64,000 bases of DNA from Myxococcota bacterium (GTDB lineage: Bacteria > Myxococcota_A > SURF-8): NCBI GenBank assembly GCA_965140415.1, contig OZ223209.1:293974-357973 (forward strand), given 5' to 3'. Numbering within the stretch: position 1 is the stretch's first letter; each line of letters starts with the position of its first letter. Made by a program: the position numbers and the translations under genes. The notes below the pieces were generated by a model. It ran no database searches. It was not told the DNA's origin and was given only the letters and a program-made list of their open reading frames with translations. Below are positions 39,851-52,057 of this stretch, piece by piece.

Positions 39851-40516
39851 ATGAAAATCGAGAATGGCTGTTACGTTCGCTTTAATTATCTGTTCCGCAA
39901 TTCGGAAGGCGAAATCGTTTACGAAAGCAATGTGGACGAGCCGACCTGGTACATTCACGGGCAGAATCTGATTCTGGGAGCCTTCGAAGAAGCCATGGCA
40001 GGGCACGAGCAGGGCGAACGCCTGACGATCGATCTGAAACCGGAAGATGCGTTCGGAGAGCGGCGCGACGAATTGATCAGCGAAGTAACTTTCGATATGT
40101 TACCGGAGGGTTTCGAACCGAAGCTGGGCGAAATTCTGGAAGCCACCAACGATGACGGCATGGTGCTTCCGATGCAGATTACCGAAGTCAAAGAGAACAG
40201 CGTCATCTTGGACGGCAACCATCCGCTGGCCGGAATGACGCTCGTTTGTGACTTGATGGTCGAGGAAGTGCGCGAAGCCACGAGTGAGGAAACCGCGGAA
40301 ATGGATCGCCTGATGGCCTCGCCCGGTTCGCAGGAAGAGGAAAGCGATGAAGCCTCGCCGTTGATCATGGAATTCGGCGGAGACGACGAAGAGGGTACGG
40401 AAGTAGACACTCCGACGTGCAGCACCTGTTCCGGCTGTGCGCCTGTGGTGATCAAAGGAGATAAAGACAAAGGTGGTTCGGGCGGTTGCGGCCCGGACGG
40501 ATGTTGTGGCTGTTAG
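39851..40516 (+). CDS. slyD: FKBP-type peptidyl-prolyl isomerase, SlyD-like with Cys-rich tail
   Basis: FKBP core with insert-in-flap region, acidic linker and C-terminal CSTCSGC...GGCGPDGCCGC tail. Confidence 0.65.
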   Translation: MKIENGCYVRFNYLFRNSEGEIVYESNVDEPTWYIHGQNLILGAFEEAMAGHEQGERLTIDLKPEDAFGERRDELISEVTFDMLPEGFEPKLGEILEATNDDGMVLPMQITEVKENSVILDGNHPLAGMTLVCDLMVEEVREATSEETAEMDRLMASPGSQEEESDEASPLIMEFGGDDEEGTEVDTPTCSTCSGCAPVVIKGDKDKGGSGGCGPDGCCGC

Positions 40517-41539: not shown

Positions 41540-42697
41540 ATGAGCAAGCGCTTGCATCTGGATTGCACGGGCGGCATTGCCGGAGATATGTTTATTTCCG
41601 CTCTCACCGGCTTGCCCATGGATATCGAAGCCTGGTGGGAGATCATGGATCGTCTGCCGCTGCCGGAATGGGAAGCGTCGTTTCCGGAGCGGTCGGAATG
41701 CGGCTTGATGTGCCGTACTTTGAAATTGACGTTGCCCGGCGGCCCCGGCGACCCGCGCGACGTGCGCTCGATCCGGCAGACCATCTTACAAGCCAAGCTG
41801 CCTTCCGAAGTGGAAGAGAATTCGTTGGCGCTATTGCAACTGCTGGCCGAAGCCGAAGGCAAGGTGCATGGCGAAGAACCGGATCTGGTTCATTTTCACG
41901 AACTGGCCGGATTCGATTCCATCTTCGATCTGGTCGGTGCGGCGGCGGCGGTGCATCTGCTGCAGCCGGTGACGATCAGTTGCTCGTCGTTGCCATTGGG
42001 ACACGGTACGGTGCAGACCGCGCACGGCGAATTGCCACTGCCGGTTCCGGTGGCGCTGGAACTGCTCGATGGCCTGCCGGTGCATCCGGTTGATATTGCA
42101 GGTGAAACCATTACCCCCACCGGGGCGGCCATTGCGCGTCATTTTGCAGGTTCCTTTTCCACTTTTGCCCAAGGTGCGATTCTGGCTCACGCCCAAAGCG
42201 CCGGGACAAGAAAGAATGCGCGTATTCCCAACATGCTGCGCGCCATCTTATTGGAGGAAGACGCCGGGGATTCGGAAACGCTGTGGGTATTGGAATGCAA
42301 CCTGGACAATATGAATCCCGAACATACGGATTTTCTTTTCGCCCGCCTGTTCGAAGCCGGGGCGCTGGATGTCTGGCTCAGTTCGATTCAGATGAAGAAA
42401 AACCGCCCGGCCCAGACCGTTTCCGTTTTAGTGCGCCCGAATCTGGCCGACGAGATGCAGCGGCTGCTCTACCTGCACACACCGACAATCGGTGTTCGGC
42501 GCTTTGCGGTGCAGCGTCATGCTCTTAAACGCAGCGAGGAGTTCCGTGAAACTCCATTGGGGACCGTGCGCGGAAAGCGCATCGACGCACCAGACGGTTC
42601 ACGCTGGATGCCGGAATACGATGAACTGGCTCGTATCGCCTCAGAGCGCGGCTGGTCGATTCGTCAGGTGTTGGAAGCGCTTTCAGCCACGAGCTAA
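41540..42697 (+). CDS. larC: LarC-family nickel insertion protein (DUF111)
   Basis: N-terminal LHLDCTGGIAGDMFISAL, central HFHELAGFDSIFDLVGAAAA and TPTGAAI blocks. No larB or larE seen in the window. Confidence 0.7.
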   Translation: MSKRLHLDCTGGIAGDMFISALTGLPMDIEAWWEIMDRLPLPEWEASFPERSECGLMCRTLKLTLPGGPGDPRDVRSIRQTILQAKLPSEVEENSLALLQLLAEAEGKVHGEEPDLVHFHELAGFDSIFDLVGAAAAVHLLQPVTISCSSLPLGHGTVQTAHGELPLPVPVALELLDGLPVHPVDIAGETITPTGAAIARHFAGSFSTFAQGAILAHAQSAGTRKNARIPNMLRAILLEEDAGDSETLWVLECNLDNMNPEHTDFLFARLFEAGALDVWLSSIQMKKNRPAQTVSVLVRPNLADEMQRLLYLHTPTIGVRRFAVQRHALKRSEEFRETPLGTVRGKRIDAPDGSRWMPEYDELARIASERGWSIRQVLEALSATS

Positions 42698-43720
42698 AGG
42701 CGGGTTTTCGAATGATGCATAGCGGGAAGCGGCGGACTCGAAACGGTCGTCCAGTCCCGCTGCCGCCTGCAAGGCACGTCGTAGGAAATACCCACGCGCG
42801 GCTTCATCCTTTCTCATATGAAAAAACAACGCCGTCTGAACTCCGAAAATGAATCCGTAATAGTTCAGTTTGCTTTTGTATTTGGGCGGGAAAGAGCGCT
42901 GCGCCTCGTAGCCGTCGTGAATGAGTTGATAGAAATCCGCTTCGTGTACGTGGGTGTATAGCGAGCAGATATCGACCAGTGGAGATCCGGCGGCGGCCTG
43001 GGTGAAGTTGACGAACCCGGTGATTTTTTTCTGCTCTCGATCTACCCATAGATTGGCGAACTGCAAGTTATTGTGCGTCAGTCCCAACGATTCCCCGATC
43101 ATCACCGATTTAGATTTCTCACCGAATTCCAGTAGTTGCTGGACCAACCCTTCATCGAGCATCTGGCTGGCCTGCACGTGTTTCATGACCGTATCCGCCA
43201 TCAAACCAAAATACTTCTGCCAGGGGCCTGGATGCACCCCGTTGCCTTCGACTGAAATCAGCCCGGCACCTTTGACCTGAATGGAATGGATACGCGCCAG
43301 AAAGCGGCCAATCTGTTCTCCGATTTTCTCTTTTTCATCATTCGAAAACGAATCACCTGCGGCATAGCTGCGTGCAATCGGTTCGCCGTCGATTTTCTGT
43401 ACAACCAAAGCGGGGCGCTCCACAAACTCGCTGTTGGACTCTACCCCAATCGGCCTGGTCAGCGGAACGTGCAGGTTCAAATCCAACGTGGAACGATTGA
43501 AGCGATCCAGTTGATCGAGAATGTTGTATTCCCGGTGAAGGATGGTAAAGTCACGGTTTTTCGGTTCCGCTTTCAGAATTTTGACCCAATAATCACCAAC
43601 CTCGTAGGTATCGCAGGCCGGATCGATCGGAACGCCATGAACCTGTTCCGGATCGGTTTCAAAATCCGATTTGAATTTCTGTATGAGTGAGATCAGATTT
43701 TCGGCGTTCGCTTGACTCAT
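42683..43720 (-). CDS. Aminoglycoside-phosphotransferase-fold protein, possibly a pseudokinase
   Basis: ATG at 43720 with GGAGGAA SD. Kinase-like fold; catalytic-loop position reads THNNLQFANLW and the metal-binding position reads FVNFT (Asn where Asp is expected). 3' end overlaps larC convergently by 15 nt. Confidence 0.5.
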   Translation of the reverse strand: MSQANAENLISLIQKFKSDFETDPEQVHGVPIDPACDTYEVGDYWVKILKAEPKNRDFTILHREYNILDQLDRFNRSTLDLNLHVPLTRPIGVESNSEFVERPALVVQKIDGEPIARSYAAGDSFSNDEKEKIGEQIGRFLARIHSIQVKGAGLISVEGNGVHPGPWQKYFGLMADTVMKHVQASQMLDEGLVQQLLEFGEKSKSVMIGESLGLTHNNLQFANLWVDREQKKITGFVNFTQAAAGSPLVDICSLYTHVHEADFYQLIHDGYEAQRSFPPKYKSKLNYYGFIFGVQTALFFHMRKDEAARGYFLRRALQAAAGLDDRFESAASRYASFENPPLARG

Positions 43721-43998
43721 GGGTTCCTCCATCGGCGTATTGATCGATGCTGAAACTGTAACAGAGAATGGGCGTTGACGCACCTTCTTTTCGCAGTTGA
43801 ACATCTGCGTTACACCAAACCCACAGCGGCAATTGACACGCATTCCCGGTCATGTTACCTTTATGTGTAAGGCGTATCATCACGGTTTTGTATTGCACCG
43901 AATCGCCAGGAATTCCGAGCCGTTTCCGCTCTGCAAGTGGAGCGGTCCTTTGTTTTGCCTTTCGAACCATTCGGCAGGCACGCCACGATGAGGATAGC

Positions 43999-44211
43999 AT
44001 GAGTGACGAGCAAAAAGACGACCTGCAAAAAGAGAAGAAACTGCCGGCGTTCGAAAACAACCGGGATTTACTGCTGTTTCTGTACGTTCTGATCAAGCAG
44101 AACCGCAAGTGGTGGCTGTTGCCCTTCTTGTTCGTGCTGGGAATTTTAAGTCTCTTCGTCAGCTTGACCGGCAATACCTCGCTGTTGCCCGCCATTTACG
44201 CCCTGTTCTAG
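43999..44211 (+). CDS. DUF5989-like small membrane protein
   Basis: ATG at 43999 with GAGGA SD; 70 aa with charged N-terminus and hydrophobic tail ...NRKWWLLPFLFVLGILSLFVSLTGNTSLLPAIYALF, matching the DUF5989 pattern as I recall it. Confidence 0.45.
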   Translation: MSDEQKDDLQKEKKLPAFENNRDLLLFLYVLIKQNRKWWLLPFLFVLGILSLFVSLTGNTSLLPAIYALF

Positions 44212-44225
44212 GTCGGGATTCAGAA

Positions 44226-45698
44226 ATGGGTCAAGCTCCGACGCCAAGGCGTTTTCTCTTTATCCGCACCTTCAAGTTTCTCAAAGCCGGAGGACCGATT
44301 CCCCCGTTGGGGTTGTTGTACCTGGCTGCCTGTCTACGCAAACGCTTTGGTGACGACTTCCAGTTGCGCTTGGTCGATACCGGTTTGCTCGGGTTGGACG
44401 GCGTTAAACAGGCCATCACGGAATTCAACCCGGATTACATCGGTATCAGCAGCATGAGTTGTGAAGAGGATTATCTCTTCGAGCTTTCCCGCTTTTGCAA
44501 GCAACAACACCCTGATTCTACAGTGATTGTCGGTGGACCACATGCCACCGTAAGAAAGGAAGCGCTGCTTTCGGAACGCTCGCTGGATTATCTCGTTTTC
44601 GGCGAAGGCGAGGAAACGCTGGTGGAATTATTGGAAGCGCTGGAAAACAAGAGCGATCCTTTGCAAGTGGCCGGAATCGCGGCGCGAACGGAACAGGGAG
44701 TGCAGACCAGTGAACAGCGTGCTCCGATTGAAGATCTGGATGCCTTGCCCTTTCCGGCCTGGGATCTGATCGATGCCAGGGAATACGCCCGTTTTCCCAA
44801 CTGGAACGGCTCGCTGAAAAAAGAATTCTACGCCGTGCTGGCCTCCTCGCGCGGTTGTCCCTACGGCTGTTTCTTTTGTCACAATCTGTTCGGTAAAACC
44901 GTGCGCGCCCGCTCGCCGGAAAGCGTCTTTGCCGAGTTGAAGTGGCTGCACGAAGAATACGGCGTGGAAGAAGTCCACATCCTGGACGATATCTTCAATT
45001 TCAACGCCGCACGTGCAACTCGTGTAATGGAACTGGTGCTGGAATCGAAGATCGATTTCGCCTTTGCGTTTCCAAACGGTTTACGCGCCGACATCATGAC
45101 CGAAGAACTGATCCGCATTCTCGCCAAAGCCGGAACCTATAAAATCAACTATGGTTTCGAAACGGCTTCTCCCCGCCTGCAAAAGCTGATCGGGAAAAAC
45201 CTGAACGTGGAGAAAGCGGCGCGAACCTTCGAGTTGACCAGCCGGGCGGGTATTATTACCGGGGCTTATTTCATGCTGGGTTTTCCCACGCAGACGAGAG
45301 CGGAAATAGAGCATACCATCGACTTCGCCGCTCATTCCGCCCTGGATGTCGCTTACTTTTTCAAGGCGACGCCGTACCCTGGCAGTGGATTCTTTAACGA
45401 GGTCTTCGAGCAATCGTCCGATGAAGCTTCCGGGTTGAAGCAGATCGAGAATTACGGCGACTACCACTTCTATTCCGTCTCGCGTTCTTATGGCGAAGTG
45501 GATACAAACGAGTTGAACCTGTTGATGTTGCAGGCGCAACACCGGTTTTATTTCCGTTTCAGCCGCATCTGGCGCGTGTTCTGGAAAAGCAGCAAGAAAA
45601 TGGAATTTCTGCATAACCTGTTGGAAGTCTTCGCGCTGTTGATTCAATCGTTTTTACTGAAACATCTGCTGGCAAGCGGCAAGGAGAAGACGCCGTGA
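44226..45698 (+). CDS. B12-binding-domain radical SAM protein
   Basis: N-terminal cobalamin-binding-like domain (PLGLLYLAACL...VIVGGPHAT) and radical SAM cluster motif GCPYGCFFC. Starts 14 nt after the DUF5989-like gene. Confidence 0.8.
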   Translation: MGQAPTPRRFLFIRTFKFLKAGGPIPPLGLLYLAACLRKRFGDDFQLRLVDTGLLGLDGVKQAITEFNPDYIGISSMSCEEDYLFELSRFCKQQHPDSTVIVGGPHATVRKEALLSERSLDYLVFGEGEETLVELLEALENKSDPLQVAGIAARTEQGVQTSEQRAPIEDLDALPFPAWDLIDAREYARFPNWNGSLKKEFYAVLASSRGCPYGCFFCHNLFGKTVRARSPESVFAELKWLHEEYGVEEVHILDDIFNFNAARATRVMELVLESKIDFAFAFPNGLRADIMTEELIRILAKAGTYKINYGFETASPRLQKLIGKNLNVEKAARTFELTSRAGIITGAYFMLGFPTQTRAEIEHTIDFAAHSALDVAYFFKATPYPGSGFFNEVFEQSSDEASGLKQIENYGDYHFYSVSRSYGEVDTNELNLLMLQAQHRFYFRFSRIWRVFWKSSKKMEFLHNLLEVFALLIQSFLLKHLLASGKEKTP

Positions 45699-45868
45699 AG
45701 CGCATTCTGGCGTATCTAATCTGCCTGTTCGCCTTGCTGTTGCCCTGGCGGCTGCGGGTGGCCTTTGCCGGGTTATTGGGTTGGATTACCCAGGGGATTT
45801 ACGGCCTGCTCTATGCCGTGATGCGCATTCTGGTTAAAAACCTTCGTAACGACTCGGACAGCACATGA
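45695..45868 (+). CDS. Small hydrophobic protein (57 aa), translationally coupled; not in the ORF track
   Basis: GTG start overlaps the radical SAM stop (GTGA), AAGGAGAAG SD; MKRILAYLICLFALLLPWRLRVAFAGLLGWITQGIYGLLYAVMRILVKNLRNDSDST; its stop overlaps the next ATG (ATGA). Confidence 0.4.
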   Translation: MKRILAYLICLFALLLPWRLRVAFAGLLGWITQGIYGLLYAVMRILVKNLRNDSDST

Positions 45869-46755
45869 CCAAAAGCCGTCAGATCGCCATTCTGTTTTCA
45901 GGCGGTACGGATTCGACTGCTGCCACAGCGCTGCTTGCCGAGCAATATGACCGGGTGCATCTGCTTTCCTATTTTCATTCCGGTTCGGCGCAGCCGAAAA
46001 ACGCCGCCACCAACATTCCCAAGTTGGTCGAGTTGTACGGCGACAAGTTCGAGCATCACATTTTTTCCACCGACAAGTTATTTCGCCATTTCACCTACGA
46101 GCGCTATTTCAAAAACCTGCGCCGGTACGGCTTGTTCAACCTGACGAGTTGCGGTTTCTGCAAACTGGCCATGCACGTGCGCACGCTGGTTTATTGCCTG
46201 GATCATGATATTATCGAAGTTGCAGACGGTGCCAACCGGCACATGTCGCACTTTCCGGCACAGATGAAAGCCATGCTCGATCCGCTGCGTGAACTGTACG
46301 CCCATTTTCACATTTCGTTTGAAAATCCGGTGTTCGAATACGAGAACCCGCGTGAAATCGATTGGATACACAAGCTCGGCCTGGCGGATCTGGCGCAATC
46401 GTCCTCCAAAAAGAAGCTTGCTGAAAAAGAGGAAGCAGCTGAGGTTTCTGCAAAAACCACCGGCGATTTGCTACTGGAGCGCGGTATTCTTTCCAACGCG
46501 AATGTCAAAGGGACGGCGACCGACCGCAAGATGCAGGCGCGTTGCTTTCAACTGACGCTGCTAAACGCCTTTGCTTTAGGCTACTTCATTCCAACAAAGG
46601 GCATGGATGCCTACCAGCAGGGCATCTCGCGCTTTTATACGGAAAAGATTTCCGTGGCGGAAGAGTTGTTACAGGACTATCGGGAGCGAGGAAACGAAAG
46701 CCGTTTGGCCGGGCTAGTCGAGCGTAATGATCTTGGGGAACATGATGCCTCGTAA
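45865..46755 (+). CDS. PP-loop superfamily ATP pyrophosphatase (QueC-like N-terminus)
   Basis: N-terminal IAILFSGGTDSTAAT (SGGxDS PP-loop) and DRVHLLSYFHSG; Cys motif SCGFCK. Subfamily not assignable by eye. Confidence 0.6.
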   Translation: MTKSRQIAILFSGGTDSTAATALLAEQYDRVHLLSYFHSGSAQPKNAATNIPKLVELYGDKFEHHIFSTDKLFRHFTYERYFKNLRRYGLFNLTSCGFCKLAMHVRTLVYCLDHDIIEVADGANRHMSHFPAQMKAMLDPLRELYAHFHISFENPVFEYENPREIDWIHKLGLADLAQSSSKKKLAEKEEAAEVSAKTTGDLLLERGILSNANVKGTATDRKMQARCFQLTLLNAFALGYFIPTKGMDAYQQGISRFYTEKISVAEELLQDYRERGNESRLAGLVERNDLGEHDAS

Positions 46756-48031
46756 AACCTCGGCAGACACCACGATGTCCTATCCGGTTTTAGGAAAACT
46801 GCTGGCTTTGGGATTCGGCCTGTTTCTGCTGGTCGTACTGGAACTGGTTGCCAGACTCGCCCTGCCGGAAAGCCACCTGGATCGGATTCTGGATATTTTA
46901 CAGCAGGACGCAACCCTCTTCTGGCGACAGCGACCCGAATTGAATACGATGTTCGCCGGAACCGAAGTCACGACCAATGAAATCGGGCTGCGCATTGCAC
47001 CTGACTCGAACGCATCGATTTTGAAGAAGCAGGCAGAAGTTCCGCGCATCGTCTGCATGGGCGCTTCGCCGACCTTCGGTTGGGGAGTTACGGAGAAACA
47101 AGCCTACAGCCGCCGGCTTGAACCGCTGCTTTCCGAAAAACTGGGGAAGCCGGTCGAAGTCATCAACGGCGGGATGATCGGGTATTCCTCGCTGCAAGGT
47201 GCGCGTTTTTTCGAGCGGGAAATCCTGCCATTGCAACCGGATTGGATCACGGTCTCCTACGTTATCAACGATGTGGACAAATACCGCTTTTTCCGCACGG
47301 ATGGCCGCCCGGATCGTGAACTGAAACCGCTGGATGAAACGGGCGTCTGGCTGCGGAATCTGCTGATGAAAAGTGCGTTTTATCGACTGTATGAGCGCAG
47401 CCTGCATGTGATGCTGCAACGGCGCGGACAGTTGGACGGAAAACCGCTGCGGCTTTATCGCCCCGGCGAGGTGCGTGTACCACCGCAAGATTACGTAAGC
47501 AACCTGGCGACCTTTGCCGATCTCTGCAAGCAGCACCATATCGGCCTGCTGTTTGTTGCCATGCCCATCAATCTGCCTGTTGGAAAAAAGCTGTCGGCCA
47601 AAGAGCGACAACGAGCGTCGGAGTTTTTGCAGGAAGGTCTGCGCCTGGCGGCTGCCGATCGGTGCGAGCAGGCGTTAGAGCCTTTACAGAAAGCGGTTGA
47701 ATTGAATCCCGACGCCAGCGAGGCGCACTACCAGCTTGGTGTCTGCTATTCCGAACTGGGTAAGGAGCCGGAGGCGCGCGCGGCTTTCGACGCCGCCATG
47801 CTCAGCGAGGCTCATCGCTGTGGAGCGGATGGACTGCGCTACAACGACCTGCTACGCGAATTTGCCGGGCAACGACGCATTCCCCTGGCGGATGTCGCAA
47901 GCGTCTTTAGAAACGAACAGGAAGAATTGTTTCTGGTGCAGGCCGGAGACCCGATTCACCCCAACGCCAAAGGCCACGCCATCATCGCCCGACTGTTGGC
48001 CGAGACGCTGTCGAACTTCATGACACGCTGA
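46742..48031 (+). CDS. SGNH-hydrolase-like protein with C-terminal TPR repeats
   Basis: N-terminal signal anchor; RIVCMGASPTFGWGV and NGGMIGYSS blocks; DPIHPNAKGH (DxxH); TPR-like repeats in the C-terminal ~100 aa. Start uncertain (46727, 46742 or 46775). Confidence 0.5.
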   Translation: MMPRKTSADTTMSYPVLGKLLALGFGLFLLVVLELVARLALPESHLDRILDILQQDATLFWRQRPELNTMFAGTEVTTNEIGLRIAPDSNASILKKQAEVPRIVCMGASPTFGWGVTEKQAYSRRLEPLLSEKLGKPVEVINGGMIGYSSLQGARFFEREILPLQPDWITVSYVINDVDKYRFFRTDGRPDRELKPLDETGVWLRNLLMKSAFYRLYERSLHVMLQRRGQLDGKPLRLYRPGEVRVPPQDYVSNLATFADLCKQHHIGLLFVAMPINLPVGKKLSAKERQRASEFLQEGLRLAAADRCEQALEPLQKAVELNPDASEAHYQLGVCYSELGKEPEARAAFDAAMLSEAHRCGADGLRYNDLLREFAGQRRIPLADVASVFRNEQEELFLVQAGDPIHPNAKGHAIIARLLAETLSNFMTR

Positions 48032-48323
48032 GTGTTGGGGTTTTTCTACTCATCGCCGTCAATTTCCGTACAACCAATGCAATCCATGTCCAGCTATAAG
48101 TCAGGCAGATTTTACCCGACAAAAAACATATCGGACTACGACTGGGGTTGCTCAACCCATGATGATTTCACCTTGCTTAGAATTGGACAAAACCTGGTGA
48201 AAGGTGTAAGAATATAGGAACTTACGAAGCAGGCGGACGGATTCAATCGGTGGATGTTGTGGCAACAGTCCCAAGATACCTGGTGCGCCTGTGCATAGCC
48301 CGGAAATTCAAACGGAAACAACC

Positions 48324-50699
48324 ATGAACCAGACTGAAAACAAACGTGCGATCCTGCTGCCGTTCGTGGTATTCATCACCATTTCCCTGGTCTTTCTGGG
48401 GATCTGGGTGTCCTCTCGGCAACAGCAAAAGAATGTTCGGGAAAACCGCACTGCCCAGATTGCCGAACAGGTAGCGATCCGGCTGGAAACCTATTTCGAA
48501 ACTCGTTTCGATATTGTAGGCATGATGAAAGTCGAATGGGAGCAGGGCAGGCTTCATCAAAAAGATGAATTCCGCAAGCGCGCACTGTATATCCAGAAGC
48601 AATTCGAAGGGCTACTGGCCATCAACTGGATCGATCCCGAGGGGGTGATTCGCTGGGTGGTGCCGGAGGAAGAAAACCATTCCGCACTGAATCGTGATCT
48701 GAAACGCCATCCCGGTGGTGCCTCGAAAACATTCATGCTGGCTTATGAAAGCAGCCAATTTCAGGTTACGCCGCCCATCGATCTGTTGCAGGGCGGACGT
48801 GGTATTGCCGGGTATTTCCCTTTGTCTCTCCAAGGCAAACAGGACGGATACTTAAACGCTGTTTTCCGATTGAAACCTTTGGTGGAAAACTGCCTGTCGC
48901 GCGGTGTGTTGAAAAACTACGCCTTTGTTCTGCACGATGGTGCGCACAAGGTGTATCAGAACGGAACGGATGACGCTTTGGCCGGGAACATCATGCAATC
49001 CGCGCAAATGCTGACCGTCGGAAACCGGCAGTGGAGCCTGCAACTGATGCCCATGCCGGCGACTCTGGCTCGATACCAGACCAATATGCATCATTACTTT
49101 CTGGCCCTGGGTTTCGTGCTGGCTTTCGGGCTGGCCTATCTTACCCGGCGTCTGATTCTTCGCGAACAGGCCTTATCCGAAAGTGAGCATAAGTTCCGCG
49201 CGCTGGCCGACTCTACCAGCGCCGCGATTTTCATTTCCTATGACGATCACTATATCTATGCCAACCCAGCGGCCATTCGCCACACCGGGTACAGTTTCGA
49301 AGAGCTTTGCAAGATGAACCCGGAACAGATCCTGCACCCGGATAGCATGGCCTACATCATGCGCTTGCGTGAACGGGCAAGGCGGTTGAATGAAGCAATA
49401 CCTTCCCGGCTGGAGCTACGAGTGGTTACGGCGGATGAAAGTGAACGTACCGTAGAGGTGACTTACGGAAGCTTCGAGCTTGGCGGAGTTCCTGCCGTGA
49501 TTACCACCTCTTTCGACGTCACCGAGCGCAAACAGGCGGAACAGAAACTACGCGAGGAGGAGCATAAATACCGTACCATTTTCGAGACCAGCGGCAGCGC
49601 CATGGTGAGTCTGGATAAGGACGCCATCATTTTACTGGCCAATAAGGAATTCGAGAAACTGAGCGGATACACCCGGAAGGAAATCGAAGGCACGAACCTC
49701 TGGTCGAAGCTGCTCGATGCGGAAAGTCTGCAAAAACTGGAGAAACTCCGCAAACTGGACGATCTGGACGAGAAACTGACGACACATAGCCAGGAAATGG
49801 TTCTGATTAACCGCAACGGGAAAACCATCGATTGTCTCAGCCTGATCAACGTGGTTCCCGGTACCGATCAATGGGTCATGTCGTTTGTGGATATCAGCGA
49901 ACGTAAACAGGCCGAATTGCAGATGCTGCGCGCGGAGAAAATGGCGGCTTTGGGGCAGATTATCGCCGGTGTCGCGCACGAGATCAATAACCCCAACAAC
50001 TTTATCTATTTCAATCTTCCCATTCTCAAGCGCTATGTGGATGCCATCCGACCGATCCTCGATCGGGAGGCCGAGGAAGTAGAGCATCTGCGCATTTTGA
50101 ACATGTCCTACCATGCCTTTTTGGAGGATCTGTACAAGCTGATTGAAAACATGCAGGACGGCTCGGAGCGCATTACGGGAATCGTATCCGAATTGAAGAA
50201 TTATATCCGCAGTCACGAAGCGCAGGAGAAAAAGCCGGAGCCGATTGCGGCGATGGTCGATCGTGTCATGATCCTGGTGGGCAAGCAGGTTCGGAAAATG
50301 GTCAAGCATATGGAAATCGAACTCGATCCCGACCTGCCCAAGGTGCTGGTGCATTCGGGAAAAATCGAACAGGTGCTGATCAACCTGATCATCAATGCAG
50401 GCCAGGCGGCGAATAAAGCGGACAGTCGCGTGCGCGTGTCCGCCAATCGACACCCGCAAAACCGGAAAATCGTACAATTGCGTATACAGGACAACGGCTC
50501 GGGCATCGACAAAGAATTGCGCGAGAAGATCTTCGATCCCTTTTTTACCACCAAAAGCCGGGATTCAGGCACCGGACTGGGCCTGGCGATCAGTCAGCGT
50601 ATCATCGAAGAACATGACGGTCGCCTCTTTCTCGACGAAACGGAAGCGGAAACGACCTTTATTATTGAACTTCCCATGGCAGAAAGCGAATACGCATGA
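48324..50699 (+). CDS. Sensor histidine kinase with periplasmic sensor and PAS domains (NtrB-like partner)
   Basis: TM-periplasmic-TM N-terminus, PAS domains, HisKA ([16 protein letters not shown]) and HATPase ([23 protein letters not shown]). Start moved to ATG 48324. Confidence 0.8.
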
Positions 50700-52057
50700 G
50701 AGCGTCTGTGTTGATTGTAGATGACGAACAGGCTTTTTTAGATAGTCTGGCGCGGATGCTGCGCATGGAAGGATACGAAAATCTCTGTATCCGTTCCGAT
50801 TCGACCCAGGTTCCGCAACTCATTGAAAAGCAGCGTTTCGATGTGGCTTTTCTGGATGTAACCATGCCCGAGCTAGATGGCATGGACCTGTTGAAAATCA
50901 TTAAAGAAAAACAACCCCAGACGGAATGCATCATGTTGACGGCGCAGGACAGCATCCAGACCGTCATGCAGGCCACACGCTTGGGTGCTTATGATTATCT
51001 GATAAAACCGATTCTGCCGGAGCGGGTGATTCACAGCCTGGAAAAAGCACTGGAACATCGACGTTTACTGGAATCGCTGCGCATGCGTTCGGAAACCGCA
51101 CAAGCGCAGACACTGAATCAACCTGAAGCCTTTCAAGCCATCGTGACCGGCAATTCGCGAATGCTGAAACTGCTGCACGAAGCGGAACTGCATGCCGCCA
51201 GCAGAATTCCGGTTCTGATTACCGGTGAAACCGGAGTCGGCAAGGAACTGTTGGCGCAGGCGGTGCATCGTTGCAGCCGGATGCGGCAGGGAGCCTTCGT
51301 TCCCGTAAATATGCTGGCGCTTTCGCCTACGTTATTCGAGTCGGAATTTTTCGGCCATGTCAAAGGTGCATTCACCGGCGCGGAGCGCAACAAAACGGGC
51401 TATCTTGCCTCTGCCGATCAGGGCAGCCTGTTCCTGGATGAAATCGGCGATTTGAGCCTGGAAATACAAGGCAAGCTGCTGCGTATTTTACAAGAGGGAG
51501 AATTCACTCCGGTCGGCAGCAGCCAATCCCGACCGGCAAACGTCCGCTTCATCGCCGCGACCAATCAGAATCTGGAAGAACAGGTCCGCAAACAGCTTTT
51601 CCGCAAGGATCTGTTTTATCGACTTCAATTCGCCCATTTGCATCTGCCTCCTTTGCGGGAGCGCCGCGACGATATTCCTCTTTTGTGCGCACACGCGCTG
51701 GAGCGGTTCGGCAAGGAAGACATGTGCCTTTCAGATGCCGCGCTACAGCGCTTGCAGCAGCACGACTGGCCCGGCAATGTGCGCGAATTGATGGGAATTC
51801 TGGAGGCGGCGGTCAACCTGGCCGAGCAGGGAGAAATTCTTCCATCTCACTTGCGGTTACCAAAATCTTCCAGCCCAAAACCTTTGCCTGCCAATCCGTT
51901 GGCAATGGATGAGCTGCAACCGCTGGAAGACATCGAACGGGAGCATATTCTACGTGTTTACAATGCGTTGGATCACAATAAAAGCCAAACTGCGCGCGCC
52001 TTGGGCATCGGTCTGCAAACCCTGCATCGAAAACTGAAAAGTTACGAAGTTTCCTGA
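50696..52057 (+). CDS. Sigma-54-dependent response regulator (NtrC family)
   Basis: Receiver (VLIVDDEQ...VAFLDVTMP), AAA+ sigma-54 activator core (VLITGETGVGKELLA, GAFTGA) and C-terminal HTH; ATG overlaps the kinase stop. Confidence 0.85.
   Translation: MRASVLIVDDEQAFLDSLARMLRMEGYENLCIRSDSTQVPQLIEKQRFDVAFLDVTMPELDGMDLLKIIKEKQPQTECIMLTAQDSIQTVMQATRLGAYDYLIKPILPERVIHSLEKALEHRRLLESLRMRSETAQAQTLNQPEAFQAIVTGNSRMLKLLHEAELHAASRIPVLITGETGVGKELLAQAVHRCSRMRQGAFVPVNMLALSPTLFESEFFGHVKGAFTGAERNKTGYLASADQGSLFLDEIGDLSLEIQGKLLRILQEGEFTPVGSSQSRPANVRFIAATNQNLEEQVRKQLFRKDLFYRLQFAHLHLPPLRERRDDIPLLCAHALERFGKEDMCLSDAALQRLQQHDWPGNVRELMGILEAAVNLAEQGEILPSHLRLPKSSSPKPLPANPLAMDELQPLEDIEREHILRVYNALDHNKSQTARALGIGLQTLHRKLKSYEVS

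Follow-up and report, generated by a model that had tools for sequence, protein, structure and literature searches.

A conserved bacterial operon joining a putative PP-loop sulfur insertase and its small hydrophobic partner to radical SAM and SGNH enzymes: a possible envelope-tailoring system

YcfA, the PP-loop ATP pyrophosphatase of the 6-thioguanine pathway of Erwinia amylovora, adenylates guanine nucleotides, adds free L-cysteine and passes the adduct to the C-S lyase YcfC (PMC12494993). The [4Fe-4S] insertases (TtuA, NcsA and Thermotoga LarE, with the related ThiI) combine a PP-loop with CXXC...C cysteines, and in Thermotoga LarE these (Cys92, Cys95 and Cys172) hold a [4Fe-4S] cluster carrying the transferred sulfide, as in TtuA (PMC9283937). 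A different gene set, sxtI-sxtJ-sxtK-sxtL of the saxitoxin clusters, encodes a carbamoyltransferase, two small unexplained proteins and a GDSL lipase (PMC2679770, PMC2684587), with sxtK encoding 54 amino acids (aa). Here we compare these systems with a five-gene operon at positions 43999-48031 of a 64,000-nucleotide stretch (called the window throughout) of contig OZ223209.1 from a Myxococcota bacterium (GCA_965140415.1), in which a PP-loop protein related to YcfA is encoded together with a small hydrophobic protein, a radical S-adenosylmethionine (SAM) enzyme, a DUF5989 protein and an SGNH hydrolase.

The five open reading frames lie on the + strand, at the positions given by an earlier, sequence-only reading of the window, and an exact-sequence look-up identified their products (70, 490, 57, 296 and 428 aa) as called genes in the source record:

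43999..44211, + strand: gene 1, DUF5989 small membrane protein (Pfam PF19451), 70 aa
44226..45698, + strand: gene 2, class B radical SAM enzyme with a B12-binding domain (Pfam), 490 aa
45695..45868, + strand: gene 3, hydrophobic protein of a conserved unnamed family, coupled on both sides, 57 aa
45865..46755, + strand: gene 4, PP-loop ATP pyrophosphatase with a YcfA-like fold, 296 aa
46745..48031, + strand: gene 5, SGNH hydrolase anchored in the membrane, with an inserted TPR-like helical region, 428 aa

The coordinates and direct reading of the sequence bear out the tight coupling described before: genes 1 and 2 are separated by 14 nt (44212-44225), the radical SAM and 57-aa genes overlap in GTGA (45695-45698), and the 57-aa and PP-loop genes overlap in ATGA (45865-45868). 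An AAGGAG Shine-Dalgarno sequence lies 8 nt 5' of the GTG start of the 57-aa gene. The SGNH/TPR frame opens at 46727, with the likeliest start at 46745 (GGGGA 5 nt before); this is also the start in the public annotation (428 aa), and it gives an 11-nt overlap with the PP-loop gene. All five products stem from a single 5.98-Mb contig and are singletons at 90% identity, and the GC content of the operon (0.540) is close to that of the window (0.538).

Four of the gene labels proposed from the sequence alone are supported by Pfam, namely DUF5989, B12-binding plus Radical_SAM, Lipase_GDSL_2 plus TPR, and the SGGxDS PP-loop protein, the last scoring below every family cut-off. The view that the combination is not a described pathway also stands. 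In profile searches with each protein no curated model placed the cassette in a characterized pathway, no NCBIfam, Pfam or PADLOC model assigned it a function, and a full-text literature search for DUF5989, DUF7411 and the gene combination returned no description of it. The PADLOC models gave only a generic radical SAM match (PDC-M51A, 67.5 bits) and a weak QueC match (17.6 bits), and an anti-phage defence system was rejected on these grounds.

The cassette is found in at least seven bacterial phyla, with conserved synteny. Its PP-loop family is scarce (77 clusters at 90% identity among 5.8 billion proteins) and occurs in about 160 of 185,579 species genomes; the hosts include the Myxococcota, Thermodesulfobacteriota, Omnitrophota, Elusimicrobiota, Bacteriovoracaceae/Halobacteriovorax and Planctomycetia, with one Gottesmanbacteria genome. 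The SGNH-TPR family is similarly scarce, with some 80 full-length orthologue clusters. Partners within 10 kb of the PP-loop gene were counted by tblastn over 87 related loci (designated by L numbers where single ones are meant), of which 52 have at least 7 kb on both sides and form the full-flank subset; seven related loci were additionally read by hand. The counts are as follows:

57-aa peptide gene: 80 of 87 loci, 48 of 52 full-flank loci
DUF5989: 55 of 87, 36 of 52
Orthologous SGNH: 54 of 87, 38 of 52
B12 radical SAM orthologue: 32 of 87, 18 of 52
PA0069-like radical SAM: 14 of 87, 13 of 52
SufS-type desulfurase: 35 of 87, 25 of 52
CCG membrane protein of about 120 aa: 35 of 87, 27 of 52
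NodU-type carbamoyltransferase: 23 of 87, 19 of 52
SxtJ-like protein: 9 of 87, 8 of 52

Either type of radical SAM gene is present in 31 of the full-flank loci, all four partner types occur jointly in 29, and the exact set of five seen in the window in 16. The closest relative, a Myxococcota metagenome-assembled genome (56% identity), has the same gene order plus a second SGNH gene upstream. Two loci reached from the SGNH orthologues likewise hold PP-loop, DUF5989 and radical SAM genes, with a peptide gene called in L089. The five-gene arrangement is beyond chance, because the same genes recur together in other phyla and the overlap at the junction is kept. A lack of co-occurrence in related genomes had been named in advance as what would speak against a shared function; the genes do co-occur, and the synteny across phyla agrees with the proposal that the five form one functional unit. 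They do not belong to it equally, as the radical SAM family is very large and is replaced by another radical SAM type, and DUF5989 is a broader Pfam family; the cassette-specific core is therefore the peptide, the PP-loop enzyme and the SGNH family.

Within this core, the 57-aa gene is nearly always immediately 5' of the PP-loop gene, with a junction overlap of 4-14 nt in most related loci, and the two genes are coupled in translation and make up an obligate pair. The 57-aa protein has no family match in Pfam or NCBIfam. Hydropathy predicts a hydrophobic, hairpin-like stretch, and the consensus from 80 loci, ..iC...lLPWRLR..y.E.LGW..Q..Y.. followed by a variable charged tail, is kept from Myxococcota to Elusimicrobiota. 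The DUF5989 protein (46.3 bits, where the cut-off is 27; E=4e-12) has a charged N-terminus, one transmembrane segment predicted from hydropathy at residues ~36-63, and a tail, LPAIYALF-COOH, that is identical in 43 of 45 relatives. The two small hydrophobic proteins had been suggested to be either membrane partners or precursor peptides. Since both are conserved across phyla over their whole functional length, the former is favoured and the latter is not, and instead of resembling a variable precursor the 57-aa protein shows the pattern expected of a structural subunit or membrane tether of the PP-loop enzyme. By the positive-inside rule the DUF5989 tail would face outward, and one idea is that it is bound there by the TPR insert of the SGNH enzyme. 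Long open frames that seemed to fuse the 57-aa protein with the PP-loop or the radical SAM enzyme were dismissed as artefacts of high-GC DNA.

The PP-loop protein is soluble by hydropathy, and its AlphaFold2 model is confident (predicted local distance difference test score, pLDDT, 89.9). It has both the SGGxDS motif and the fold of YcfA (PDB 9kq6), which is its closest solved relative (profile E=3.9e-21; Foldseek E ~1e-11) and by far the best match in sequence and fold, the second-best fold being the 4-thiouridine synthetase ThiI. Matches to Pfam QueC, DUF7411 and Asn_synthase are confined to the first 40 residues and lie below every cut-off (20.9 against 22 for Pfam QueC), and the curated models for QueC (TIGR00364, 20 bits against 150.3) and LarE (TIGR00268, 12 bits against 150) are far from reached. 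Thus, of the QueC, LarE, TtuA and Asn-synthetase types among which the sequence-only reading had sought to place the protein, none fits; the YcfA-like fold points to thiolation instead.

An alignment of 50 PP-loop sequences shows SGGxDS(T), C96-x2-C99, C227, Q133 and the KLxxH and FPxQ motifs to be invariant, with C111 conserved in 95% of them. The SGGxDS, KLxxH and FPxQ motifs are shared with YcfA, and its base-contacting F132 and Q135 are retained as F130 and Q133. In contrast, overall identity to YcfA is only about 20%, and YcfA has Leu and Glu at the positions of the invariant C96 and C99. Furthermore, R18, Y128, Q129 and E134, which serve its L-cysteine-adduct and guanine-deprotonation route, do not recur in the family, so that the mechanism cannot be that of YcfA in detail. 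The family also differs in having a membrane partner of 57 aa and a further helical domain at the C-terminus, and in standing in a cassette with radical SAM, SGNH and DUF5989 genes. C96, C99 and C227 instead lie at positions similar to the three cluster-binding cysteines of Thermotoga LarE. In contrast to the [4Fe-4S] insertases, the protein fails the LarE model and has no tRNA-binding domains, and its cluster is only putative.

As for those insertases, a cysteine desulfurase is available as sulfur source in relatives of the cassette: in 35 of the 87 the PP-loop gene is followed by genes for a CCG membrane protein and a SufS-type desulfurase. This again recalls the YcfA-YcfC pair, in that relatives of the cassette encode a class V pyridoxal phosphate (PLP) enzyme beside the PP-loop protein. 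With a score of 396 bits against SufS and the catalytic RxGxHC cysteine retained, the SufS-type neighbour is therefore a persulfide-forming desulfurase, unlike YcfC, which lacks that cysteine. The CCG family consists of unnamed membrane proteins about 120 aa long, which share an N-terminal E/D-C-C-G motif and one further conserved cysteine; its gene always stands between the PP-loop and SufS-type genes (L002 8860-9225, L003 7972-8343, L005 8822-9172, L088 13157-13525), and the protein may be a membrane sulfur relay. Taken together, the YcfA/ThiI fold, the CXXC...C triad and the linkage to SufS make sulfur insertion the best-supported chemistry for the PP-loop enzyme, and they suggest a cluster or persulfide route in preference to the cysteine-adduct route of YcfA. 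In two loci, L006 (6949-8004, 10800-11799) and L051, a gene for a WbuX-like N-acetyl-sugar amidotransferase is found directly 5' of the PP-loop gene, and a shortened PP-loop paralogue (241 aa) lies downstream, after a gene for a 93-aa peptide-like protein; this second pair looks like a tandem duplication of the peptide and PP-loop genes.

The radical SAM enzyme matches Pfam B12-binding (68.9 bits) and Radical_SAM (85.6 bits) above their cut-offs, carries the CxxxCxxC motif as GCPYGCFFC, and ends in a conserved amphipathic or hydrophobic helix. It reaches none of the models for characterized subfamilies (BchE, HpnJ, ApyD, PhpK, TsrM, TokK and others): the best, BchE, gave 175 bits against a cut-off of 481, and the others fall further below their own. 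Among solved structures the best relatives, AprD4 and TokK, are both distant, with PDB matches of at most 69.5 bits. In 32 of the 87 loci an orthologue stands immediately 5' of the peptide gene. The family as a whole is very large, with over 150 representatives (50% identity) exceeding 288 bits and 8,795 matching at E<=1e-30, and an exclusive coupling of the B12 radical SAM enzyme to the cassette was rejected for this reason. Among its best matches are giant proteins of 3,500-7,500 aa (P0228, P0229, P0231, P0234, P0249) with four or five such radical SAM units each. In the 87-locus census the B12-type gene and the PA0069/SplB-like gene never occur at the same locus, and the PA0069-like gene accompanies the carbamoyltransferase in most cases. 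This mutual exclusion suggests either two product variants or non-orthologous replacement.

The SGNH protein (Pfam Lipase_GDSL_2, 63.3 bits, and TPR families) has an N-terminal transmembrane anchor by hydropathy. As the catalytic serine, the oxyanion glycine and asparagine and the DxxH motif (S108, G146, N175, D402, H405) are invariant in 48 sequences, it is in all probability an active enzyme. Its AlphaFold2 model is confident (pLDDT 91.9), and the best fold match is CgnD of the crocagin pathway (PDB 8a2n; Foldseek E=2.4e-9, template modelling score 0.63 on the target), which has a similarly enlarged SGNH fold (PMC10070186). Identity to CgnD is only 13-14%, and CgnD is soluble and has neither the TPR insert nor the membrane anchor. 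Generic GDSL esterases and acetyl-xylan esterases follow in the fold search with E-values about 100-fold weaker, and these model-based matches would not separate an esterase from an acyltransferase or a peptidase.

Membrane-anchored, outward-facing SGNH-type enzymes, often two per locus, are also a feature of the periplasmic polysaccharide O-acyl relays AlgI/AlgJ/AlgX and PatA/PatB. By analogy, loci of the cassette combine SGNH-type enzymes with small membrane proteins and what would be a cytoplasmic donor-making enzyme, and they often carry a second SGNH gene, or, in L006, a gene for an AlgX-domain protein. In contrast to these relays, no MBOAT or acyltransferase-3 protein is present and the donor chemistry would differ; AlgX and PatB were not among the top Foldseek matches of the SGNH-TPR protein. 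The second membrane-anchored SGNH family (Pfam NonGDSL/Lipase_GDSL_2, ~400-510 aa) is found in 38 of 88 related loci and is absent from the window; its gene often lies directly 5' of DUF5989 (L001 4650-6140, L088 14786-16321, L090 7789-8994).

A further likeness is to sxtI-sxtL. Related loci pair a NodU-type carbamoyltransferase with a 131-aa SxtJ-like membrane protein (23.6 bits against a Pfam cut-off of 24.4), a DUF5989 protein of ~50-75 aa, the size of SxtK, and an SGNH/GDSL enzyme. Neither a carbamoyltransferase nor SxtJ was found within the 64-kb window, and the saxitoxin clusters for their part lack the PP-loop protein, the 57-aa peptide and the B12 radical SAM enzyme as partners. Naming the DUF5989 protein SxtK and the SGNH enzyme SxtL was dropped, since two large protein searches, compared by name only, returned no such names.

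The genes around related loci point toward glycans. Genes for GT2, GT9 and GT-C (PMT_2/YfhO-like) glycosyltransferases recur in 25 of them, Wzy genes are present in L025, L030, L089 and L090, and in L006 the AlgX-domain (AlgX-type SGNH) protein and the WbuX-like enzyme are encoded beside the PP-loop gene. At L090 (7614-10685) two DUF5989 genes, a NonGDSL SGNH gene and a B12 radical SAM gene that overlaps the DUF5989 stop, as in the window, stand in a glycan cluster (two PMT_2, one GT4, three GT2 and Wzy_C genes) with neither a PP-loop nor a 57-aa gene. Because L090 is without the PP-loop gene, the DUF5989, SGNH and radical SAM trio exists on its own. We infer that DUF5989 and an SGNH enzyme, together with a cytoplasmic group-making enzyme (a carbamoyltransferase or a radical SAM enzyme), may constitute a general envelope-tailoring module, to which the peptide and PP-loop pair, whether or not accompanied by the CCG protein and SufS, would be a sulfur-inserting add-on. 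The set in the window would then be the minimal form of the B12 radical SAM version, with no sulfur relay of its own. A link to the cell-division (dcw) cluster, seen at L001 and L089 only, was treated as coincidence.

The earlier proposal of a small-molecule, lipid or peptide modification module stands as plausible. Our preferred reading, held tentatively and at somewhat short of an even chance, is that the cassette is a membrane-associated tailoring system that thiolates a carbonyl on an envelope glycoconjugate. A membrane setting is indicated by the transmembrane segments predicted in the DUF5989 protein, the peptide and the SGNH protein, and by the amphipathic tail of the radical SAM enzyme. 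The PP-loop enzyme would sit on its 57-aa partner at the inner face of the membrane and spend ATP on adenylating a substrate carbonyl (amide, lactam or carboxyl). Sulfide or persulfide delivered through the cysteine-ligated Fe-S site would then give a thioamide, thiocarbonyl or thiocarboxylate; housekeeping desulfurases or free sulfide would supply the sulfur in the source genome, where no dedicated desulfurase appears to be present. The class B radical SAM enzyme would make a radical change on the same substrate, most simply a methyl transfer, and, on the outer side of the cytoplasmic membrane, DUF5989 with the outward SGNH-TPR enzyme would then act on the product by hydrolysing an ester or transferring an acyl group. 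The likeliest target would be an envelope glycoconjugate or a lipid-linked precursor. In its most specific form, in which a membrane-tethered Fe-S PP-loop insertase puts a thiocarbonyl (e.g. a thioamide from an acetamido or carbamoyl group) on an envelope glycan or lipid-linked sugar, the proposal is fairly unlikely.

Several observations weigh against our preferred reading and leave room for others. Glycan genes adjoin only about 25 of 86 loci, and the operon in the window has no nearby cysteine desulfurase, CCG protein, glycosyltransferase or carbamoyltransferase. The outward orientation predicted for the SGNH-TPR catalytic domain has the positive-inside rule as its only basis. YcfA residues R18, Y128, Q129 and E134 are replaced by T15, H126, M127 and A132 and are thus not conserved, and the cysteines of the PP-loop enzyme could be structural zinc ligands rather than ligands of an Fe-S cluster. 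That the cysteines bind zinc is part of an alternative in which the PP-loop enzyme belongs with the amidotransferases or nitrile-forming enzymes (QueC, WbuX or NAD-synthetase kind), with all four on a structural zinc. Its weak N-terminal matches to QueC and asparagine synthase and the lack of an adjacent desulfurase in the window would agree with this. We consider it quite improbable, given that such families score far below YcfA and ThiI and below their own curated cut-offs, that among the loci neither a glutaminase nor a HisH/HisF-type ammonia donor recurs while SufS does in 35 of 87, and that the cysteine positions fit the CXXC-C of the Fe-S enzyme LarE. The zinc site of QueC is C-terminal, and the positions here are unlike it.

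Both best fold matches, YcfA and ThiI, work on nucleobases, and this is as compatible with a nucleotide or nucleoside as substrate as it is with a glycan. The cassette could accordingly make a thionucleotide or thionucleoside antimetabolite like 6-thioguanine, the PP-loop enzyme thiolating a nucleobase carbonyl, the radical SAM enzyme and, at other loci, the carbamoyltransferase tailoring the product, and the membrane proteins and SGNH enzyme serving in export, deprotection or self-protection. The thiolation of nucleobase carbonyls by these two top structural neighbours, the conservation of the guanine-stacking Phe and the base/ATP-bridging Gln of YcfA, and the predatory or host-dependent habit of many hosts (Bacteriovoracaceae, Myxococcota, Omnitrophota), for which a toxin would be sensible, argue for this possibility. 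Yet the general base E134 and the cysteine-adduct residues of YcfA are absent, three of the five products are membrane proteins, and the neighbours that recur are glycosyltransferases and not nucleotide-metabolism, transporter or resistance genes, and we regard an antimetabolite as unlikely. A pathway akin to those of ribosomally made peptides with post-translational modifications (RiPPs) or peptide-derived cofactors would have a small protein as substrate, most plausibly the C-terminal tail of DUF5989, which the radical SAM enzyme would modify, the PP-loop enzyme thioamidate and the SGNH enzyme, as a peptidase, release. That CgnD frees the C-terminal core of crocagin (PMC10070186) is in keeping with this, as are the invariant LPAIYALF-COOH end, a weak likeness of the radical SAM enzyme to the RiPP enzymes ApyD and rSAM_ocin_1, and the SPASM/twitch radical SAM genes found in 26 related loci. 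However, the lead of CgnD over generic esterases is only about 100-fold in E-value, the small proteins are conserved across phyla and have transmembrane segments and no variable core, and no RRE/PqqD domain was matched in Pfam or NCBIfam. Moreover, the predicted topology puts the DUF5989 tail on the outer side of the membrane and so apart from the radical SAM and PP-loop enzymes, which are cytoplasmic, and DUF5989 also accompanies a carbamoyltransferase or occurs in glycan clusters without a PP-loop gene. A peptide product is therefore very improbable, and thiolation of an envelope glycoconjugate remains the reading that we prefer.

The genes on either side of the operon are unrelated housekeeping or regulatory genes. 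Upstream lie genes for DapB, an aminotransferase, HPPK, a transaldolase, a SlyD-like FKBP and LarC, as well as a divergent APH-type kinase; downstream are, among others, genes for a PAS histidine kinase and a sigma-54 regulator. Four of them were located as follows:

39851-40516, + strand: SlyD-like FKBP with a Cys-rich C-terminal tail
41540-42697, + strand: LarC nickel-insertion gene (Pfam Ni_insertion, 376 bits)
48291-50699, + strand: PAS histidine kinase
50696-52057, + strand: sigma-54-dependent response regulator

The LarC and SlyD-like genes are situated 1.3-4 kb upstream of the PP-loop operon. A LarE role, hinted at by LarC 3 kb upstream, was rejected, as the LarE model fails and related loci do not keep LarC as a neighbour. 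The histidine kinase and sigma-54 regulator genes overlap by 4 nt and begin 260 nt downstream of the operon, and the pair could regulate the cassette in the source genome. None of the APH-like kinase, LarC, SlyD-like FKBP, histidine kinase and sigma-54 regulator is conserved beside the cassette elsewhere, and they were not taken as part of the unit. No PLP enzyme is encoded in the operon of the window. The 155-nt leader of gene 1 contains a terminator-like hairpin (43926-43945, + strand; 8 pairs, then a T-rich run) between the divergent APH-like gene and the DUF5989 start. It has no Rfam match, and its candidate roles are an attenuator or a terminator for antisense transcription. A riboswitch or leader RNA was rejected, with no Rfam match at E<=1 within 43500-48400.

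The component enzymes of the cassette are of known kinds; what would be new is a putative PP-loop sulfur insertase with a new subunit, partner set and membrane setting. Few PP-loop thiolations outside ribosomal and tRNA substrates are known, among them the 6-thioguanine and LarE cofactor pathways, and closthioamide is another case. To these the family would add a membrane-tethered thiolation with its own small subunit and often its own sulfur relay (SufS and the CCG protein), and a PP-loop family wired to radical SAM and extracytoplasmic SGNH enzymes. We know of no bacterial thiocarbonyl envelope modification of this kind; if true, it would be common to Myxococcota, Bdellovibrionota, Omnitrophota, Elusimicrobiota, Planctomycetota, Desulfobacterota and at least one lineage of the Candidate Phyla Radiation. 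The cassette would also give a first functional handle on DUF5989 and on the unnamed 57-aa family, and on the widespread module of DUF5989, SGNH enzyme and carbamoyltransferase or radical SAM enzyme that resembles the unexplained sxtJ/K/L genes.

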